A program made the position numbers and the translations under genes. From Octopus vulgaris (taxonomy: Eukaryota), in NCBI GenBank assembly GCA_951406725.2, contig OX597829.1, positions 11,656,001 through 11,720,000 of the forward strand: DNA of 64,000 nt. The letters run 5' to 3'. The stretch's first letter is position 1. Every line of letters starts with the position of its first letter. This document shows, piece by piece, positions 10,068-58,608 of this stretch. The notes under the pieces are model-generated. The model was not told the origin of the DNA. It worked only from the letters and a program-made list of their open reading frames with translations, and made no database searches.

Positions 10068-10216
10068 CCATTATTTACATTATTTACATTTGACAGATAT
10101 CTGTCCTCATCTTGTTTGTTGTTAACACAACGTTTCGGCTGAAATACCCTCCAGCCTTCATTAGGTGTCTTGGGGAAATTTTGAACCTGGGTTCTCATTC
10201 CTAAGGTATTTTTCGA

Positions 10217-14635: not shown

Positions 14636-15250
14636 TTTTTTAGAAATTTCTGTCGACCTTTTTTCGAGTAGCGTGCGTTTTGTGAAAAAAATATATGGTT
14701 AATGGACAATATGTCAAATTTCCGGCATATTTGGCATTAGAATTTTTTTCCTTTGTCCTCATTTATGAATTGTTTATAAATTTAACCTTTAAAGGTATTT
14801 TTTGATATGCTGGCCATTGATAAAATTTTTTTCGAAAGAAATTTTATCCTCATTAGATATAAATTTAAGCGTTCACTTCCGGACTATCTCACTCTGTGAG
14901 AGCCTCAGTTCAAATCGCACATGTCTTGAATGGGCTGGAGTATTTCTATTTTGGATGTGTTTGGGGTACTTAGTTGTGCTCATGACTTAGTGTTTGCTTC
15001 TTCCATGGGTGCGAGTAAGTATCTCATTTATTTCTTCTGCCACATGTATCGCTGACGAAGAGAGGGCTCTTAGTAGCTAACTCTGAAATCGGTCCGATAT
15101 GGTAATAATGGAATTTTTTAGAAATTTCTGTCGACCTTTTTTCGAGTAGCGTGCGTTTTGTGAAAAAATTATATGGTTAATGGACAATATGTCCAATTTT
15201 TCGGCATATTTGGCATTAGAAATTTTTTCCTTTGCCCTCATTTATGAATT
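14636..15250 (+). mobile_element. HHR repeat family C: ~478-bp unit with ~135-bp terminal direct repeat
   Basis: 14641 ff. recurs at 15119 ff.; flanked by TA-rich repeats; contains the HHR at 15046-15100. Confidence 0.8.
15046..15100 (+). ncRNA. Minimal type I hammerhead ribozyme
   Basis: gtatcg-CTGACGA-agag..ctct-GAAA-tcg-GTC-cgatat: stem I gtatcg/cgatat, stem II agag/ctct, GUC cleavage triplet. Confidence 0.75.
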
Positions 15251-18741: not shown

Positions 18742-20955
18742 CAATGTACAAAGCATTCACTGCAGTAATATCACAAAGATTGAACAAGCACCTGGACGAA
18801 AACAACCTGTTTCCAGAAGAGCAGAAAGGATGCCGCAAAGGCTCATATGGCTGTAAAGATTAACAAATGATCAATGAAGCCATAACTGAAGACAGCTGCA
18901 GAAAGAAGAAAAGCCTCAGTATGGCCTGGATCGTCTACCAAAAGGCGTTTGATAGCATTCCCCAGACGTGGACCCTCGAAACACTAGCCATTAACAAGGT
19001 AGCACCAACAATTATAAAAAACATAGGACACTCTATGAATAAATGGCAAACAGTCCTACACCTCCAAACAAAAAAGGGTCTTGTCAAAACCAAAGCCATC
19101 CCTATTAGAAGAGGAATATTCCAGGGAGACACGCTCTCTCCACTCCTTTTCTACTTGGCACTGTCACCTCTATCTGATATGCTAAATAGAACTGGATGCG
19201 GATACAAATGTTACGGCAAAACGATCAGCCACCTTTTATATATGGATGACCTAAAACTATACGCTACAAATGACAAACAGCTGGAAACACTACTAAAGAC
19301 AGTTCATGGATTTACCAAAGAAATAGATATGAAATTTGGATTTAAAAAATGCGCCAAAGCAACCCTGAAAAGAGGAAAACTAGTTAAGAGTAGCAACATC
19401 ACACTAGATAAAATCAATGAAATAAGAGAATTAGACCGAAGCCAAACTTACAAATATTTAGGAATCCATGAACTAGATAAGACACAACACACACAAATGA
19501 AAGAGAAAATAAAAAAAAGAATATTATAGACGAGTTAGATCAATACTAAAAACAGAGCTCAATACTACAAACAAGATAATAGGTATTAACACTTTAGCCA
19601 TCCCAGTTATAAGTTACAGCTACAATAACCTTAACTGGACGCTAAATGAACTAACCAAAATAGATAGGAAAACAAGAAAAATAATGACAGGATCTAGGAT
19701 GCATCACCCAAAACCAGACATAGAAAGGCTATATATACAACGTATAGAAGATGGTAGAGGCCTTATAAAGCTGGAAAACTTATTACAAAATAACCACCAT
19801 AGGACTGCAAAAATATCTACTTCAGAAGCAAGGAAAACTGATACAAATAGCGGCAAAACATGAGCAGAACAAAAAATTGTTCTTGGTATTTAAGGAAGCT
19901 GACAAATACAAACAAGAGATCATACCACCTAACAAAAAAGAAGAAGCAGAAGAAGAAGAAGAAGAAGAAGAAGAAGAAGAAGAAGAAGAAGAAGAAGAAG
20001 AAGAAGAAAAAGAAGAAGAAGAAGAAGAAGAAAACACAACAAAAGCTATAAAGCAAATGAAATCAAAACTAAAACTAGAACAGCAACGTATCATGATAAA
20101 ACGATGGCAAGAAAAGCCCCTTTATGGCAAATACTGGACTAAACTAAATGCAAAAGAAATAGACAAAGAAAAATCCCAGCAATGGTTAAGAAGCTCGGGA
20201 CTCAAAGCAGAGACAGAAGGATTTTTAATTGCAGCACAAGACCAAAGCCTCCTCACCAGAAATTACCAAAAACATATAATATAACAAGTAACTGCAGAAT
20301 ATGTGGAGATGGACAAGAAACAATAAATCATATTATCTCCGGCTGCCCAGTCCTGGCTAAGAAGGAATATATTCACAGACACAACAGAGTTGGGACCTAC
20401 ATACACTGGAAGCTATGCCAACATTATGGAATAACAACAGAAAAAAGATGGTATAGGCACACACCAGAAAAGGTCACAGAAAACGAGAAAGCAACCATAC
20501 TCTGGGATATGCCGATACACACAGATAGAGAAATTAAGGCCAACAGACCAGATATAGTTGTCAGAGATCATGAAGAAAAAAATGCTTTCTAATTGATGTA
20601 TCAATACCGGCAGATGACAACGTTTCTCTAAAAGAAATGGAGAAACTTTCAAAATACAAAGACCTGGAAATAGAGGTAACCAGAATGTGGAATCTAAAAA
20701 CAGAAACAATCCCTATCATAGTAGGTGCATTAGGCATGATAAAAAAAATATTCAGACAAATACATAGCAAAAACACCAGGACTTACAAACACATATAACA
20801 TACAGAAAATTGCACTACTAGGCACTGCACACATCCTACGCAGAACACTTTCAATACAGTAACTATAAGAGTATCACAACAAAGCACAGCACCTACCTAA
20901 GGCACACAGAGCTGTGCTCGGTAGTGAAGTGAAAGCACGATATAAAATAAAACTA

Positions 20956-24540: not shown

Positions 24541-25084
24541 TGTATGTGATTCTAAGCTGGGAGCATCCAAGTCAGCCTCGTGGAACCCACTTCATGGTTA
24601 TGTAAGCAGAAGAAAACATTGTCACACATCAACAGTGATGATCGACTGAGAAGTGTAGCAGGTAGACTTTGTGGCCATAATAATAAATGATATTCTGAAA
24701 GTCTGTTTTTCCTGTTTCCAGTAAGGTGTCGGGGCACAATAAATAAAATTTACTGCATTTTTTGACTTTGATAAAAAAATATTTTTATAAATGTTCAATA
24801 TCTAACAAAAACTACATCAGTTAAGCAAACGACCTTCTCTAAATGCATCAAAAACCACTAAAACATATTCAGGACACTATTTCAGAAAATTACTTCTGTT
24901 CTTTTTGAGCATATAAAAGACAAATTTAGAGGAGTCAAAATGAGCAAGAAAAGCTATGAATTACATTTGAAAAAAACTTATAGACATCAATATCTAAGTC
25001 AAATGAAAGGGAATCATGGAAAAATGGCATAATATGAAATTGACAAAACTTGACTAAATCAAAAACAATCAACATAAAATATTC

Positions 25085-25385
25085 TACATTATTTTCATTA
25101 TTTACATTAGACAGATATTTGTCCTCATCTTGTTTGTTGTTAACACAATGTTTCAGCTGATATACACTCCAGCCTTCATCAGGTGTTTTGGGAAAATTTC
25201 GAACTTGGGTTCTCAGGTTCGAAATTCTTAGGAATGAAAACCCAGATTCAAAATTTCCCCAAGACACTGGAGGGTATATCAGCCAAAACGTAGTGTTAAC
25301 AACAAACAAGATGAGGACAAATATCCATCAAATGTAAATAATGTAAATACTGTACATAATTCCTCATCTCTTAAATATAGAACAA
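25085..25385. mobile_element. Family A element as head-to-head inverted pair
   Basis: Left arm (minus) has an HHR with intact CTGATGA and GAAAC at 25142-25187; right arm (plus) has the core deleted. Confidence 0.8.
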
Positions 25386-30922: not shown

Positions 30923-32530
30923 GTACGTATGTATGTACGTATGTATGTATGTATGTATATATATACATCATGATCATCATTGTTGCTGCCATCATTTTTT
31001 TCCATGCTTGCATGAATTGCAACAGGTCTTCTCTAACACAGTGTCTCGCCACTTGTCGCGGTCCCTTGACATCTCCTTCATGGGGATCAGCTCTCTAAGA
31101 TTAGATTTCACTACCTTTTTCCCATGTCTTCTCTCGTTTTCCCCTCCTTACTGTAATTTTCATTCACTTACATCTCCAGGCACTTCTTTACTCAACTGTC
31201 ATCCCCCATATGTATCACATATCCATACCAACCCACCAACCTTTCTTATCCATACTACAGCTCATTCATCTTATACATAGTTCTCTCAGCTCATTTGTGT
31301 TCTGTCATTCCTATATACTGATGCTATACATCCAATGAAGCATACTTGTCTCATTTCTTCCCGGCCTTCACACATCTTATGTAAAGGTACACGTCTTAGA
31401 GCTGCACTCTCAACCATCATATAGTCATCATCATCATCATCATTTAACACGCATTTCCCATGTTGGCATGAGTTTGGCAGGAGCTAAGAAGGAACTGCTC
31501 CAGGTGCCAGAGTCTGTTCAGGTCGCAATTTCAATTCCAGGACTGGGCAGTTTGTTGTGTTCTTGAGCAAAACACCTCATTTTATGTAGCTCCAGTCTGC
31601 TCAGCTACAAATAACAGGATGCCAGTCCACCCTCTATTTGACTGGCATCTTGTTCAGGAGAAATGTTGTGATTCCAGTCATTTATATGCCATGGAAACCA
31701 GATAAACATCTGTATGAGTTTTAGGACTTGAAACTAGTAATATCCATGGAACTGGAATTTCCCACTTGTAATACTCCTCATTTTTTCCGCTTATAATACT
31801 CATATTTTCACATCATGCTTTGTATATAAATGGCATACAATCTGCCTTTCTGTCACTGACTGCCAGCATAAAAAAATAGGCATTAAAATAAATATTCCAT
31901 TACCAATTAAGTAATAAAGTTATAGCTAAAGTCCATCAGCAGCTTCAAATGAGAGTGTTCAAATGATAATCCATAGCAAGGAATAGTGGAAGTTACCAAT
32001 TCCAATTTTGAATAGAGAATCAGTGAGAGCTGAGTAGGAATAATATAGAATAGTGTGAATGGTAGATGCACTAGTTTGTAGATATATACTAGTCTGAATA
32101 ATCTGTATAGCAGGGACTTATACATAGACAGATAGATAAATGGATAAAGGAATAGGAGATGTCAGATTTTTATCCTATGATGACCACCAGCACTGACCAG
32201 GATACTAAACCTATTTTACTCTGATCTTGCCTTCATTTTTGACAAACTGGACTATACTATTTATATTATTTACATTTGACGGATATTTTTACTCATCTTT
32301 AATAGAAATATTAAAATTACTAAGTCTCTCTAAAAGAGAACAACGGCAGCGTTCCCGCAAAATAATAGTTATCGCCATACTAATATGGCATTCTTATAAA
32401 AATAAGAATAAAGCTGTCCGCTTATTAGCTCCATGAGGCCATCGCCTTAAGTTAGCTATTTGATACACAAACTGTATCCATATAACCTTCGAACAAGGGA
32501 GGTCAGTCGCTCCACATTACTTGACCGGCA

Positions 32531-32572
32531 GCTACAGACGCATTTCGGGGTATTGCCCCTTTTCAATGCAGC
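32531..32572 (-). ncRNA. Type I hammerhead, U3-A8 core variant (copy 1, GAAAU)
   Basis: Minus: gctgca-TTGAAAA-gggg caata cccc-GAAAT-gc-GTC-tgtagc. Confidence 0.75.
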
Positions 32573-32893
32573 GTAGCCAGACCAGTAGGTGTCGCTTCTG
32601 ACAATCTCTGTTCGAAGGTTTTATTTACCTAGCTTCGGTGGAATACATCCACTTGTTTTCAATAATAGAAATATTAAAATTACTAAGTCTCTCTAAAAGA
32701 GAACAACGGCAGCGTTCCCGGAAAATAATAGTTATCGCCATACTAATATGGCATTCTTATAAAAATAAGAATAAAGCTGTCCGCTTATTAGCTCCATGAG
32801 ACCATCGCCTTAAGTTAGCTATTTGATACACAAACTGTATCCATATAACCTTCGAACAAGGGAGGTCAGTCGCTCCACATTACTTGACCGGCA

Positions 32894-32935
32894 GCTACAG
32901 ACGCGTTTCGGGGTATTGCCCCTTTTCAATGCAGC
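32894..32935 (-). ncRNA. Type I hammerhead, U3-A8 core variant (copy 2)
   Basis: Minus: gctgca-TTGAAAA-gggg caata cccc-GAAAC-gc-GTC-tgtagc. Confidence 0.82.
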
Positions 32936-33302
32936 ATAGCCAGACCAGTAGGTGTCGCTTCTGACAATCTCTGTTCGAAGGTTTTATTTACCTAGCTTTG
33001 GTGGAATACATCCACTTGTTCGGAGGTTATATGGATACAGTTTGTGTATCAAATAGCTAACTTAAGGCGATGGCCTCATGGAGCTAATAAGCGGACAGCT
33101 TTTTTCTTATTTTTATAAGAATGCCATATTAGTATGGCGATAACTATTATTTTCCGGGAACGCTGTCGTTGTTCTCTTTTAGAGAGACTTAGTAATTTTA
33201 ATATTTCTATTATTGAAAACAAGTGGATGTATTCCACCGAAGCTAGGTAAATAAAATCTTCGAACAGAGATTGTCAGAAGCGACACCTACTGGTCTGGCT
33301 AT

Positions 33303-33344
33303 GCTGCATTGAAAAGGGGCAATACCCCGAAACGCGTCTGTAGC
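33303..33344 (+). ncRNA. Type I hammerhead, U3-A8 core variant (copy 3)
   Basis: gctgca-TTGAAAA-gggg caata cccc-GAAAC-gc-GTC-tgtagc; predicted cleavage after C33338. Confidence 0.82.
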
Positions 33345-33665
33345 TGCCGGTCAAGTAATGTGGAGCGACTGACCTCCCTTGTTCGAAGGTTATATGGATA
33401 CAGTTTGTGTATCAAATAGCTAACTTAAGGCGATGGCCTCATGGAGCTAATAAGCGGACAGCTTTATTCTTATTTTTATAAGAATGCCATATTAGTATGG
33501 CGATAACTATTATTTTCCGGGAACGCTGCCGTTGTTCTCTTTTAGAGAGACTTAGTAATTTTAATATTTCTATTATTGAAAACAAGTGGATGTATTCCAC
33601 CGAAGCTAGGTAAATAAAACCTTCGAACAGAGATTGTCAGAAGCGACACCTACTGGTCTGGCTAC

Positions 33666-33707
33666 GCTGCATTGAAAAGGGGCAATACCCCGAAACGCGT
33701 CTGTAGC
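33666..33707 (+). ncRNA. Type I hammerhead, U3-A8 core variant (copy 4)
   Basis: Same motif as copy 3; predicted cleavage after C33701. Confidence 0.82.
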
Positions 33708-34458
33708 TGCCAGTCAAGTAATGTGGAGCGACTGACCTCCCTTGTTCGAAGGTTATATGGATACAGTTTGTGTATCAAATAGCTAACTTAAGGCGATGGT
33801 CTCATGGAGCTAATAAGCGGACAGCTTTATTCTTATTTTTATAAGAATGCCATATTAGTATGGCGATAACTATTATTTTCCTCATCTTGTTTGTTGTTAA
33901 CACGTTTTGGCTGATATACCCTTCACCCTTCATCAAGTGTCTTGAGGAAATTTTGAACCTGGGTTCTCATTCCTAAGATATCGTTATTATTGTTGTTATT
34001 TTCATTATTATTCAGGTCACTACCTGGAATTGAACTCAGAATCTTGGAATTAGTAGCCCGTGCTCATAACTACTACACCATATGCTGTGCCCATGTAAAT
34101 AATGTAAATAAAGTACATAATTCCTGATCTCCTAAATGTAGAACAGTATGGACTATACTAATTTCCTCAATTGGACTGAACTTGAGACCGCATGATCATA
34201 CAATCACAGCGCAAACTTCACAGCAACACAGCCATTCCTACTCCTGTAATCGATTGCCTTACTTCTTTATCATTACATTTATTATCTATCAGCATATATT
34301 GTTGATCAATATAGCACCCACAAGATCTTCTTTCAAGCACACACCACAGCATTCCAGTGAGGCTTTATCCAGAACATTTAAAGCATACTTAAGAACTACA
34401 GAATACATGAGACCTTTCTGTTTTCCAAAGAAGCTTAAATATAGGCAGTAAGCACATA

Positions 34459-41720: not shown

Positions 41721-44455
41721 CATCATCATCATCATCATCATCATCATCATTGTTTAAACGTCCGTTCTCCATGCTAGCATAGGTTGGACGGTTCAACTGG
41801 GTTCTGGGAAGCCAGAAGGCTGCACCAGGCCCAGTCTGATCTGGCAATGTTTCTACGGCTGGATGTCCTTCCTAACGCAAACCACTCCGTGAGTGTAGTG
41901 GGTGCTTTTTACGTGCCACCGGCACGAGGCCAGTCGGGGCGGCGCTGGCATCGGCCATGTTTGGATGGTTCTCTTACCGTCACTGGTATCACAGCTACAA
42001 TTTCCATTGATGTTAATCAATTTCGATTTTGATTTTCACTTGCCTCAACAGGTCTTCACAAGTAGAGTTTTGTGTCCCAAGAATGGAAGGTATGCATAAG
42101 TGGACTGGCTGCATCCCATGTAGAGGCTACGGGTTATGGTCTCACTTGTCCTGCTGGGTCTTCTCACGTACAGCATACTTCCAAAGGTCTCGGTCTCTAG
42201 TCATTTCCTCGGTGAGACATAAAGTTCGAAGGTCATGCTTCACCACCTCGTCCCAGATTTTCCTGGGTCTGCCTCTTCCACAGGTTCCCTCAACCGCTAG
42301 GGTGTGGCACTTTTTCACACAACTATCTTCATCCATTCTTGCCACATGACCATACCGGCGCAAATGTCTCTCTTGCACACCACAACTGATGCTTCTTAGG
42401 TCCAGCTTTTCTCTCAAGGTACTCACACTCTGTCGAGTATGAACACTGACATTACATATCCATCGGAGCATACTGGCTTCATTTCTTGCGGGCTTATGAC
42501 ACACACGTCATACAGTCTGCCTTTTACTCTGAGCAAGAGGCCTTTTCTCACCAGCAGAGGTAAGAGCTCTCTGAACTTTGCCCAAGCTATTCTTACTCTA
42601 GCAGTTACACTTTCAGCACACCCACCCCCGCTACTGACTTGGTTACCTAGGTAACGGAAGCTATCAACTATTTCTAATTTTTCTCCCTGGAATGTGGCAG
42701 AAGTTTGTCTCAGAGCATTTTCAGTGTTTATTGCTCCTGAGCATCTGCCACATACAAAAACTATCTTCCTAGTTAGCCTTCCTTTGACATTGCTGCACCT
42801 CTTATGTGTCCATAGCTTACACTTGGTACATCTTATAGAGTTTCTACCTACACCTTTTCTACAGATCGAGTAGGGCCATCTACCTGTAGGCGTTTGTGAT
42901 TTGTCTACCTTCCTACTTATTAGCACTTTGGTTTTAGCTAGATTGACTCTAAGGCCCTTCGATTCTAATCCTTGCTTCCACACCTGAAACTTCTCCTCCA
43001 GTTCTGATAGTGACTGAGCAATTAGAGCAAGGTCATCAGCATAGAGGAGCTCCCAGAGGCATCGTGTCTTGAATTCCTCTGTTATTGTCTGGAGGACTGA
43101 GGGGGCTGAGGACTGAGCCTTGGTGGACTCCTACCTCTACCCGGAATTCTTCACTGTACTCGTTGCCAACCCTCACCTTACTAGCGGCGTCCCTGTACAT
43201 GGCTCACACAGCTCTCACTAACCATTCATCAATCCCTAGTTTCCTCATTGACCACCAGATAAGGGATTGGGGGACCCTGTCGAAGGCTTTCTCCATGTCA
43301 ACAAAAGCCAGGTACAGGGGCTTATCTTTGGCTAGGTATTTCTCCTGCAGCTGCCTTACCAGGAATATAGCATCAGTGGTACTTTTCCCTGGAACGACCC
43401 CAAACTGCATCTCATCTAAACTAACTCTCTCTCTAATTAGTTGGGCTATGACCCTCTCCGTAACCTTCATTACCTGATCCAACAGCTTGATACCTCTGTA
43501 ATTATTTGTATCTAAAGCGTCACCTTTACCTTTGTAGCAGTTGACTATTATGCTGCTACACCAGTCATTGGGTATGACTCCTTCGTGTATCACCTGATTA
43601 ACTATACGGGTGACTAGGCTATAGCCAACACTACCAGATATTTTGAGCATCTCTGCAGTGATTCCTGATGGGCCTGGGGCTTTGCCTGTCTTCATGCTTC
43701 TAATTGCCTTAACTGTGAATTCGGATAGCTGGTCCCTCTGTTGGGTCGACATTCAGCAGACTCTCTTTATCCCATTCATTTTCTTTATTCAGCAACCTTT
43801 CATAGTGGCGTCTCCAAACCTCTCTCTTTGCAGCCTCATTTAGCACAAGTGAACCATCATCCATGCGAACACATTTCTCTCCTATCACATCACGATTCTG
43901 TCACACACTGTCTTGCAACACGAAACACCTCAAGTCTTTGGTCCTCGCGGTGCAGAACATTGGCAAATTTTTTCCTATCTGCTTCCCCTCTGGCTAAATA
44001 GACCTGTCTCCTAGCTCCCCTTTTGGCAGTCTGATACAATTCCCTGCTATCACCATTCTTCCAGTCCTTCTAAGCCTGCCTCTTTTCTCTAATAGCCCTG
44101 TCTACAACATTGTTCCACCACCACGTTATTTTGGGTCGAGAGGGGACTTTGCACCAGCCACAGATCTGGTCAGTGGCTTTCAGCAGGTTGTCCCTTAGAA
44201 ACGTCCAGTTGTCTTCTACCCCATGTGAAGCTCTATCTCCTTCTTCTTCGTCAAAGGCTTCAAGTAATATGTCCCTAAATCTCTGTCCATTCGCAGGATC
44301 TTTAAGCTTCCAGATCCTTCTTCTCCATGTTAGTCGTCTTCAGGTCATCCTCTTAGTCCTGATCCTAAAGTCACTAACTACCAGTCTATGTTGCGGGGTA
44401 CATTCTTCGCCTGGGAAGGTTTTGGCATTTATAAGCAGCCATCTTTCCCTTTTCC
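41721..44455 (-). mobile_element. RTE-clade LINE, 5'-truncated and frameshifted (end of APE, RT, 3'UTR)
   Basis: [66 protein letters not shown]; (gat)n tail. Confidence 0.93.
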
Positions 44456-56759: not shown

Positions 56760-58405
56760 TATGTTTGACTTTGCTTTACATTTGTACAAGTTGGCTTCAA
56801 GTCTCAGCCAGATACCTCAAGAGACAAGTTGGAACTTCATGTTGTTGTTATGCCTAGTATGCCATATATTTGGTTTTGTACTTAGTGTTGTATTAATGAA
56901 TGTTTAAAAAAAACATACGAAAAGTATGTTTGTTTTAAAACTTGAGATTACATAGAAAGTATTTTGCCTAGGATATGAGCAGTTCCCATGAGCACTATCT
57001 TTTGAATTTCTGCCATTTTGGGGTTTCCTGGTATCTGAGTTAGGTAGCAATCAGCTCCTTTTGCTATCATTCCCAGGGCACCTATGACAACAGGTATTGT
57101 TTTAGTCTTCAGGTTCCACATTTTGCTGATTTCTATTTCCAGATCTTTATATTTGCTCAGTTTTTGGTAGGTCTTGACAGATACGTTTATATCGATTGGG
57201 ACAGTCATATCAATGAGGAGGCATGTTCTTTGTCTGAAGTCTTTCAGTATCATGTCTGGCCTATTCGCATCTATATTTCTGTCAGTTTGAATGGTGAAGT
57301 TCCAGACGAGTGAGATATGATCATTTTCAAGCACTGGAAATGGTTTGTGTTCCCAACAGTTTTTATCATGGGGCAAGTCCTTGCAAATTACCCGGTGAAT
57401 ATATTGTGCAGCTCTATCATGCCTGTTGAGATACTCTGTAGGCGCTAGAAGACTGCACTTGGAGACAACATGATCAATGGTTTCATTTTGTTGTTGACAT
57501 ACTCGACATGTTGGGCTACTGCTGTTCTTTACTATGTTGGCCTGGTAGTTCCTTGTAGGTAGGCATTGATCTTGAGCTGCTATGATAAACCCTTTTGTTT
57601 CAGATTTTAAGCCAGAGGCCATTAGCCATTGATGGGTCAGGGCTTTGTCAACATCTGCATTATTCGCTCTCATTGAGAGGTTTTTCTTGCCATTTATCAT
57701 TCAGAATTTTGAGAGAGGTATTAAGGCTAAACAAAAAAGGAGTAGTGATAGTGAGTCACCCTGGAAAATGCCACATGAAACTTTTACATCACCAGCATTT
57801 AGAGATTCATTGTCACTGTTCAGAGTTAGTGTGGTTTTCCATGATCTCATACTTACAGTCAAAAAGTTTCGCAGAGTAGGTGCTATCATATACATTTCCA
57901 GGCATTTCCTAATCCAGCTGTGTGGTAGGCTATCAAAAGCCTTTTTATTGTCTATCCAGGCTATTGATAAGTATTTGTGTCGTTTGTGACAATCTTCTAA
58001 GATCATCTTATTGATGAGCAGTTGGTCTTTACAACCGTAGGATCCTTTTTGTTCATTAGGGAATATGCTGCTCTTTGTTAAAAAACAATAGGTATATTCC
58101 GTCAGGACAGATGTTAGTGTTTTATACATAGTTGTTAAGCAGGTTATGGGTCTATAGTTTTTTGGTTCATTTGTTTCTTCACTTTTTGGAAGCAGGAATG
58201 TTAAACCATTAACTAGCCAAGGAGGCATCCTACTAGGGTGTTACAAAACATCATTGTAAAGTTCTGTAAGCAGTTCATGTCTCTCTGAGAATGCATTCAA
58301 CCAGAAGTTAGGAATTTTATCCTTTCCTGAAGACTTCCATTTGCTTGACCTCCTGAGAGCAGATCTTATCTCTTCTACCTTGACACCTTCCCACTTTTGC
58401 TCCTC
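56760..58405 (-). mobile_element. R4/Dong-clade LINE (second family), internally deleted near 57700
   Basis: NYRPITCL, KAFDSLPH, GIFQGDSLS fused to AAQDQ, CRVCQQQNETIDHVVSKC, RPDMIL, KYKDL; the YMDD region is missing; AAT/AAC repeats on both flanks. Confidence 0.9.
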
Positions 58406-58469: not shown

Positions 58470-58608
58470 ATTATTCAGGTTCCCTGATGAAGGCTGGAGG
58501 GTTTATCAGCCGAAACGTTGTGTTAACAACAAAGATGAGGACAAATATTCGTCAAATGTAAATAATGTAAATAATGTACATAATTTCTCTCTTCTTAAAT
58601 ATAGAACA
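58470..58608 (+). mobile_element. Family A 3' part with intact HHR core
   Basis: CTGATGA-a-ggctg gagggtttat cagcc-GAAACGTT-gtgtt at 58484-58524; 5' strand of stem I lost at the junction. Confidence 0.8.

Follow-up and report, generated by a model that had tools for sequence, protein, structure and literature searches.

An inverted array of a hammerhead-bearing 363-bp repeat in Octopus vulgaris and the Penelope-type footprint of its insertion

What is a 363-bp repeat that carries hammerhead ribozyme motifs, has no coding capacity and runs first in one direction and then in the other, and how did it come to lie where it does? The question is raised by a 64,000-nucleotide stretch of the Octopus vulgaris genome (assembly GCA_951406725.2, contig OX597829.1, positions 11,656,001 to 11,720,000, forward strand), here called the window, whose own coordinates are used throughout. 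The explanation that we consider probable is a recent insertion of a non-coding 363-bp animal retrozyme of the kind without long terminal repeats (non-LTR retrozyme), likely written in by a Penelope-like reverse transcriptase (RT)-endonuclease acting in trans. On one part of this explanation, movement of the retrozyme by a Penelope-type enzyme, our confidence is high.

The array and its insertion footprint

The array has a period of 363 bp with 98% matches (Tandem Repeats Finder) and consists of two mutually inverted arms. The inverted arm lies on the minus strand at 32300 to 33020 (721 bp, 2.0 copies) and the direct arm on the plus strand at 33015 to 33881 (867 bp, 2.4 copies), in agreement with the non-coding unit of about 2 minus-strand and then about 2.4 plus-strand copies described in an initial annotation of this DNA. 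When the unit is numbered from the first base past the predicted ribozyme cut (u1 = 33339), the inverted arm extends from u243 to u237 and the direct arm from u40 to u180. Against the reference monomer, the arms differ at 5 and 7 positions. The 5'-truncated ends of both arms are connected by a 6-bp microhomology at the flip (33015 to 33020), and the whole is flanked by an identical 8-bp target-site duplication on the plus strand (left copy 32292 to 32299, right copy 33881 to 33888); both features had been missed by the initial annotation. The unit has stops in all six frames and no open frame across it, and no open reading frame (ORF) with RT and GIY-YIG domains was found in the array or among the frames listed near it. 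The window array is one recent insertion bounded by its 8-bp target duplication.

The insertion belongs to a dispersed, young mobile repeat with five subfamilies. The genome around the window is 2.8 Gb in size and rich in microsatellites. A DNA search with the unit returned 1652 candidates, 40 of which were scored and gave 137 matches at 90 to 100% identity, so that the comparison of unit and genome suggested initially did reveal dispersed copies. A 28-nucleotide core pattern had 833 exact genome matches and its reversed control 0, and a family-wide form of the pattern had 2047 against 0. The five subfamilies are about 81 to 89% identical to the window unit, and the full monomers read for three of them measure 362 to 364 nt. 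Contigs of 8 public runs, whose labels carry six organism codes, cover the unit; the tandem joint is listed in two of the four runs of one contig comparison, where contigs cannot tell a circle from a tandem.

The first 100 exact core matches listed fall into 61 loci, and we read the ends of 60 (contig C1 whole, C2 to about 110 Mb); the 61st, L024, has a short plus a long end. Head-to-head arrangements account for 42 of the 60 loci and single arms for 18. The 5' ends are variable and the 3' ends fall at two fixed sites 63 nt apart, a short end at about u175 and a long end at about u238. A short end is paired with a long end in 39 of the 42 head-to-head loci (p ~4e-12), the remaining three have one irregular end, and the same end occurs twice in none. 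The window copy follows this rule, with its long end at 32300 and its short end at 33876 to 33881 (u175 = 33876, followed by a few bases that the target also has). Of the single arms, 10 stop at the long site, 7 at the short site and 1 elsewhere. Subfamily B, scored by eye, behaves alike: the 30 loci fetched include 14 distinct inverted ones, of which 10 combine a short and a long end and none has the same end twice (L099 is the same locus as L107, and L088 and L102 were counted once).

Canonical 3' ends abut (TA)n in 93 of 98 cases, compared with 12% of background positions, and target duplications at non-TA sites measure 5 to 13 bp (four loci, besides the 8 bp of the window copy). At the inner joints of inverted loci the arms overlap by at least 2 bp in 34 of 42. 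The insertions are made up of unit sequence only, with no LTR architecture seen (no separate search was made for the motif of a primer-binding site [PBS] or for that of a polypurine tract [PPT]). By tblastn, no intact RT ORF is attached at 60 + 20 retrozyme loci, and the arms run into further units, not into an ORF, in sets of 60, 30 and 20 loci, the 30 without tblastn.

This footprint is of the Penelope type: two fixed 3' ends, 5' truncation, an inverted copy with a one-sided tail and an AT-rich target. For Penelope elements, PMC8557442 and PMC3846280 describe a truncated copy in inverted orientation, a tail restricted to one end and a bias toward microsatellites; palindromes at their inverted junctions appear in PMC3846280, and two internal start sites that define the tail of one element in part of PMC11167929. 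The initial annotation had proposed a young, non-autonomous element mobilised by a Penelope-like RT. That proposal is supported by the copies across the genome, by covariation in the motif and by the footprint of the insertions.

The hammerhead motif and its covariation

The window holds four copies of the motif, three of them identical. On the plus strand, a type I hammerhead with distal stem I occupies 33295 to 33350 (motif 33303 to 33344; U3 at 33309, N7 at 33313, A8 at 33314), with a predicted cut after 33338, and a second occupies 33658 to 33713 (motif 33666 to 33707), with a predicted cut after 33701; the predicted 363-nt monomer between both cuts (33339 to 33701, plus strand) has 41% GC. 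The minus strand carries an intact copy at 32894 to 32935 (predicted cut after 32900) and the exceptional one at 32531 to 32572 (read from 32572 to 32531), where a change of C15.2 to U at 32542 breaks the stem III palindrome and the duplex energy is -3.9 vs -7.5 kcal/mol. All four hammerheads first reported are thus there, the palindromic stem III in three of them.

The motif has a stem I of 6 bp that continues through an internal loop into a distal stem of 5 bp; stem II measures 4 bp, and stem III is short and palindromic. In the core are a Watson-Crick 3-8 pair, GAAA and an NUH site. Its internal loop and its loop 2 may resemble those of the Schistosoma ribozyme and could form the tertiary contact between loops 1 and 2 that belongs to the canonical form. 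The initial annotation had called the motif minimal. By its predicted pairing it is instead a canonical metazoan type I hammerhead as PMC4209133 defines it in the part consulted (6-bp helix I, 4-bp helix II, short palindromic helix III). The minimal Penelope form has a helix II of 7 to 8 bp, a short helix I and an extra base before helix II, whereas the unit motif has 4 bp in helix II, 6 bp plus the distal stem in helix I and no extra base.

Comparison among copies suggests that this structure has been maintained. In 12 aligned copies picked across subfamilies (9 distinct), 95.9% of cells pair, vs 25 to 50% in slid controls; both sides have changed in 5 of 19 pairs, and the covariation score was reached by 0 of 500 shuffles. 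Conservation and covariation of the motif in other genomic copies, to which the initial annotation had looked, are supplied by this result and by the 833 exact cores. One pair of stem I varies among G-U, A-U and G-C; in stem II, the first pair is found as G-C, A-U or G-U; and the stem III palindrome is exchanged for another palindrome among subfamilies. N7 may be A, T, C or G, while U3 and A8 are constant; contigs of the four compared runs likewise list no difference at U3 or A8, and N7 varies in them. Because N7 is free, stems I and II are compensated and stem III stays palindromic, the changes fall where a hammerhead tolerates them. Among the first 100 of the 2047 family-wide matches, 99 have U3-A8 and one has C3-A8, and the C3-G8 form of the pattern gave two matches, both without stem II. 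U3-A8 is fixed in the family, with no C3-G8 member, and is therefore a difference from the textbook consensus and not a change among copies.

The comparative evidence supports a functional U3-A8 core, as the reading of a compensatory core change had anticipated, and cleavage is predicted. U3-A8 cores are natural and reported active in vitro in part of PMC3088659, and a U3-A8 variant is described for the Schistosoma Penelope element Cercyon in PMC4209133. Two considerations weigh on the other side: the covariation counts come from related sequences and represent few, non-independent events, and in vitro cleavage failed for 8 of 9 dimers of frog retrozymes in 10.64898/2026.07.22.740005. The dimer-type folding proposed at the outset is found in the predicted minimum-energy fold of a 540-nt two-unit transcript, a double hammerhead with a 6-bp stem III from two palindromes; in the same transcript the stem I probability of the single motif is 0.04. 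A fold of the whole-monomer alignment was set aside as weak support (double changes in 5 of 101 pairs, 4 sequences, one of them 3 bases out of phase, covariation term -0.31). Low variation in the ribozyme region was also dropped as evidence, the loci having been selected by exact core match.

The initial annotation further held that searches of the CUGANGA type would miss this motif. Rfam indeed returned no hammerhead match (E up to 10) for the array region, the isolated U3-A8 motif or a C3-G8 motif at 15052; because the last was missed too, U3-A8 is not shown to be the cause. The C3-G8 motif belongs to a hammerhead-like structure at 15045 to 15100 on the plus strand, with a 7-bp stem I, a 4-bp stem II and a GUC site, and a similar motif is found in L062.

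The retrozyme itself sits in an older, high-copy host repeat, the target of the insertion, of which a left piece (32258 to 32299) and a right piece (33881 to 34111) remain. The empty form, with about 32288 joined to 33879 to 33884, is present in contigs of two public runs, with loose ends at 32258. On its minus strand, at about 33898 to 33942, the right piece contains a minimal-hammerhead-like motif that has decayed; better copies with a C3-G8 core, also minimal-hammerhead-like, lie at 58484 on the plus strand, which looks intact, and at 25182 on the minus strand. Further host-repeat copies lie near 10072, 25084 to 25349, 38925 and 58485, and L022 is a second retrozyme copy at a nearly identical site within the same host repeat. 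LINE-like broken reverse-transcriptase frames at 18864 to 20284, 42423 to 43752 and 56948 to 58240 are, as far as seen, unrelated to the array.

The RNA template and the candidate enzyme

At nine diagnostic sites, units of different loci differ in 44% of comparisons, and comparisons within an arm disagree in 1 of 283. Both arms agree in 40 of 40 informative two-armed loci (195 sites), compared with 32% and a maximum of 54% after shuffling; the count used the two main alleles, and with others kept the figures are 5% and 4%. Rare substitutions covered by at least two units are found in all units in 16 cases, in a subset in 9 and in one unit in 119. The 16 fixed ones span both arms in 6 loci, and up to 6 units share one. 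Because haplotypes are uniform across units and arms and rare variants are fixed, arrays would have been rebuilt from single units repeatedly. In a set of 135 of 145 arms (10 with irregular ends or in the complex locus L134 were omitted), 106 cross the cut site, 86 exceed one unit and the longest single arm counted is 2010 bp. Haplotype uniformity and cut-site crossing are consistent with rolling-circle copying of one monomer. We find it likely that both arms derive from one RNA molecule, and, with somewhat less assurance, we favor a circular template.

At L134 (3445 to 6414), an arm of 8 units comes after a partial unit whose end is the short 3' end, as if copying had jumped to a second template at its start site. 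A signature of RNA editing was sought and not found (A>G 16 vs T>C 24, p 0.27).

Several observations weigh against the copying of one circular monomer. Within the window, the units of each arm are not uniform at u99 and u327, which would need mixed templates, later gene conversion or recurrent change, and the nine rare variants limited to some units of a locus need a cause other than one-monomer copying. The 5' ends at the cut site number 11 of 135 vs 6.7 to 8.0 expected (p 0.08 to 0.17, not significant). They cluster at u36-54 (27 of 135 vs 7 to 9 expected, an interval picked post hoc); the cluster is seen in the second pass and those after it too, as would be expected of a linear RNA that begins at this place, and u36-54 may be a transcription start. 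Arms of the same haplotype could also arise from two RNAs of one master locus, and L067 and L157 are possible two-RNA chimeras.

The account that gains most from these points keeps the element and the enzyme and has an uncut linear multimer from a homogeneous master array as the template, so that the ribozyme only trims and no circle is copied. We regard it as unlikely. The hot spot at u36-54 could be its transcription start, the cut site shows no significant pile-up of 5' ends, one of the nine subset variants (L127) is in register between arms, and uncut RNA was the main in vitro substrate of the one Penelope element tested in the portion of PMC11167929 consulted. Linear copying with 5' truncation, however, can only shorten arrays, whereas the family has many haplotypes, each uniform over all units and both arms, with rare variants fixed in up to six units. 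A palindrome also lies at the hot spot, and in 3 of the 42 inverted loci the joint connects two palindromes, as reported for Penelope junctions in PMC3846280.

An enzyme was sought among genomic GIY-YIG sequences, of which 150 of 6136 candidates were scored. Many copies have a 781-aa open frame (that length in 16 of 20 loci fetched) with RT and GIY-YIG domains; a CX4CX2C motif ahead of the endonuclease suggests the Neptune/Nematis type, going by the description of that motif in PMC8557442. The terminal repeat of this family has a U3-A8 motif with stem II compensated across subfamilies and a weak stem I, and its palindromic stem III is the same as in retrozyme subfamilies B and D. Copies of the family terminate in (TA)n at two positions separated by about 40 nt, and its true inverted copies are short plus long in 3 of 3 (L066, L077, L080); L189, whose flanks are themselves inverted duplicates and which has the short end on both sides, was omitted. 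Against a partnership, blastn finds no similarity between the unit and intact 781-aa copies, and further Penelope-type families are present in the genome. What unit and family share is limited to the U3-A8 core, the stem III palindrome and one short motif located at the long 3' end. With no blastn match and no intact ORF at 80 loci, homology does not identify the partner. Judged from sequence, the 781-aa family would be the best candidate enzyme, and we rate its being the partner an even chance, short of proof.

Two apparent links between retrozyme and enzyme were rejected. An 82% match in L049 is a separate subfamily-B copy beside a Penelope end, and L067 fails as proof of co-mobilisation since the 160-bp end of a third repeat separates the two elements. 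That locus (L067, 2280 to 4975) consists of a long-end retrozyme arm, a 44-bp plus arm, the 3' end of the third, (TA)n-targeting repeat and a truncated 781-aa element; the third repeat has 1334 candidates genome-wide, and the composite may reflect nested insertions or a two-RNA event. At L157 (3320 to 5600), a retrozyme arm is fused directly at its 5' end, with 3 bases in common, to a broken Penelope-type ORF that has the same orientation; this ORF belongs to another clade and shares about 30% identity with the 781-aa protein. At L064 (768 to 2207) and related loci, the young 781-aa family also has an upstream ORF of up to 479 aa, which overlaps the start of the RT ORF and has no convincing Pfam match; a second ORF is unusual for Penelope-like elements.

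If copying of a circle is accepted, the insertion could proceed as follows. A multimeric transcript would fold as a double hammerhead and cut itself after each GUC, releasing a 363-nt monomer that a host ligase would circularise. A Penelope protein, probably a dimer, would nick both strands of a (TA)n target; on one and the same RNA, cDNA would be primed near u175 from the first nick and near u238 from the second. Each cDNA would travel round the circle for a variable length before the two ends join by microhomology; where only one arm is kept, a plain 5'-truncated copy would result. In its most specific form, one Penelope dimer holds one circle and rolls from u175 and u238, the intact U3-A8 element is the partner and the shared core reflects common descent, and this we put forward only tentatively.

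It is improbable, in our estimation, that the unit is instead the terminal repeat (pseudo-LTR, pLTR) of an unsampled autonomous Penelope element whose truncated ends make up the loci. In favor of this reading, the footprint is Penelope-like in all respects, homology between frog retrozymes and pLTRs is described in 10.64898/2026.07.22.740005, most GIY-YIG candidates lie outside the scored set, and the broken ORF at L157 abuts a unit in the same orientation. The arms nevertheless enter further units and not an ORF in all three sets of loci, and five subfamilies keep the 362 to 364-nt size. A satellite or foldback repeat generated at the DNA level, with the hammerhead as a dead relic, is highly improbable: some long single arms (L113, L134) share private variants that local tandem expansion could yield, but the copies are dispersed and 5'-truncated, with fixed 3' ends and target duplications, and ribozyme changes are compensatory, all of which argues against it. 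An assembly artefact can practically be dismissed, for although the inversion joint of this locus is bridged by no listed short-read contig of the public runs, the 8-bp duplication is clean, the arms differ from each other, the same architecture recurs at 39 other loci and the unit is present in contigs of independent runs.

Relation to known elements

The closest counterparts of the octopus unit are the animal non-LTR retrozymes, as described in the available parts of PMC7229834 and 10.64898/2026.07.22.740005. Like them, it is a non-coding tandem unit within 150 to 450 bp (350 to 390 bp in mussel) with GC below 50%, one canonical type I hammerhead per unit, no LTR, PBS or PPT, target duplications above 4 bp, co-resident Penelope elements and a predicted highly paired circle. 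It differs in its U3-A8 core and in that most of its copies are head-to-head insertions with two arms, set in (TA)n and bounded by two fixed 3' ends; those studies demonstrate expression and cleavage, whereas for the octopus unit cleavage and a circular RNA are predicted. In its sequence, it shows every feature of the class.

The motif also resembles the Cercyon and other Penelope hammerheads in its U3-A8 swap, palindromic stem III and dimer-type folding (PMC4209133, PMC3088659, both in part). The Cercyon variant, however, stands among minimal, mostly single motifs in the text of PMC4209133 consulted, whereas the unit motif is of canonical size, conserved and set in a tandem non-coding unit. 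Endonuclease-positive Penelope-like elements, in the parts of PMC8557442, PMC3846280 and PMC11167929 consulted, share with the unit 5' truncation, partial tandems, an inverted copy placed head to head, a tail confined to one end, targets that are AT-rich or microsatellites, start sites at two internal positions and palindromes at inverted joints. The unit departs from them in having no ORF, a tail of 63 nt vs 30 to 40 nt and a repeat unit that is the whole element; an autonomous Penelope-like element has an RT and GIY-YIG ORF between terminal repeats, and the unit has none.

The element type (PMC7229834) and the U3-A8 core (PMC4209133, PMC3088659) are thus already known from the parts of those sources consulted. 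In the literature searched, neither this family nor a retrozyme with a U3-A8 core was found described; Dfam, Repbase and the supplement of PMC7229834, which may list relatives, were outside the search.

The excerpts of PMC7229834 and 10.64898/2026.07.22.740005 propose, and do not demonstrate, an enzyme that moves retrozymes and the copying of a circle, and the origin of Penelope inverted repeats with a one-sided tail is named as open in part of PMC8557442. The insertion statistics, with a matched candidate enzyme, make the proposed retrozyme life cycle testable. Because the rules are countable (a short end with a long end, one haplotype per insertion) and the candidate enzyme is young and intact, both questions could be taken to the bench. 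If the two-site reading is true, it would give a matched set of enzyme, template and target for the step that the retrozyme papers only propose.

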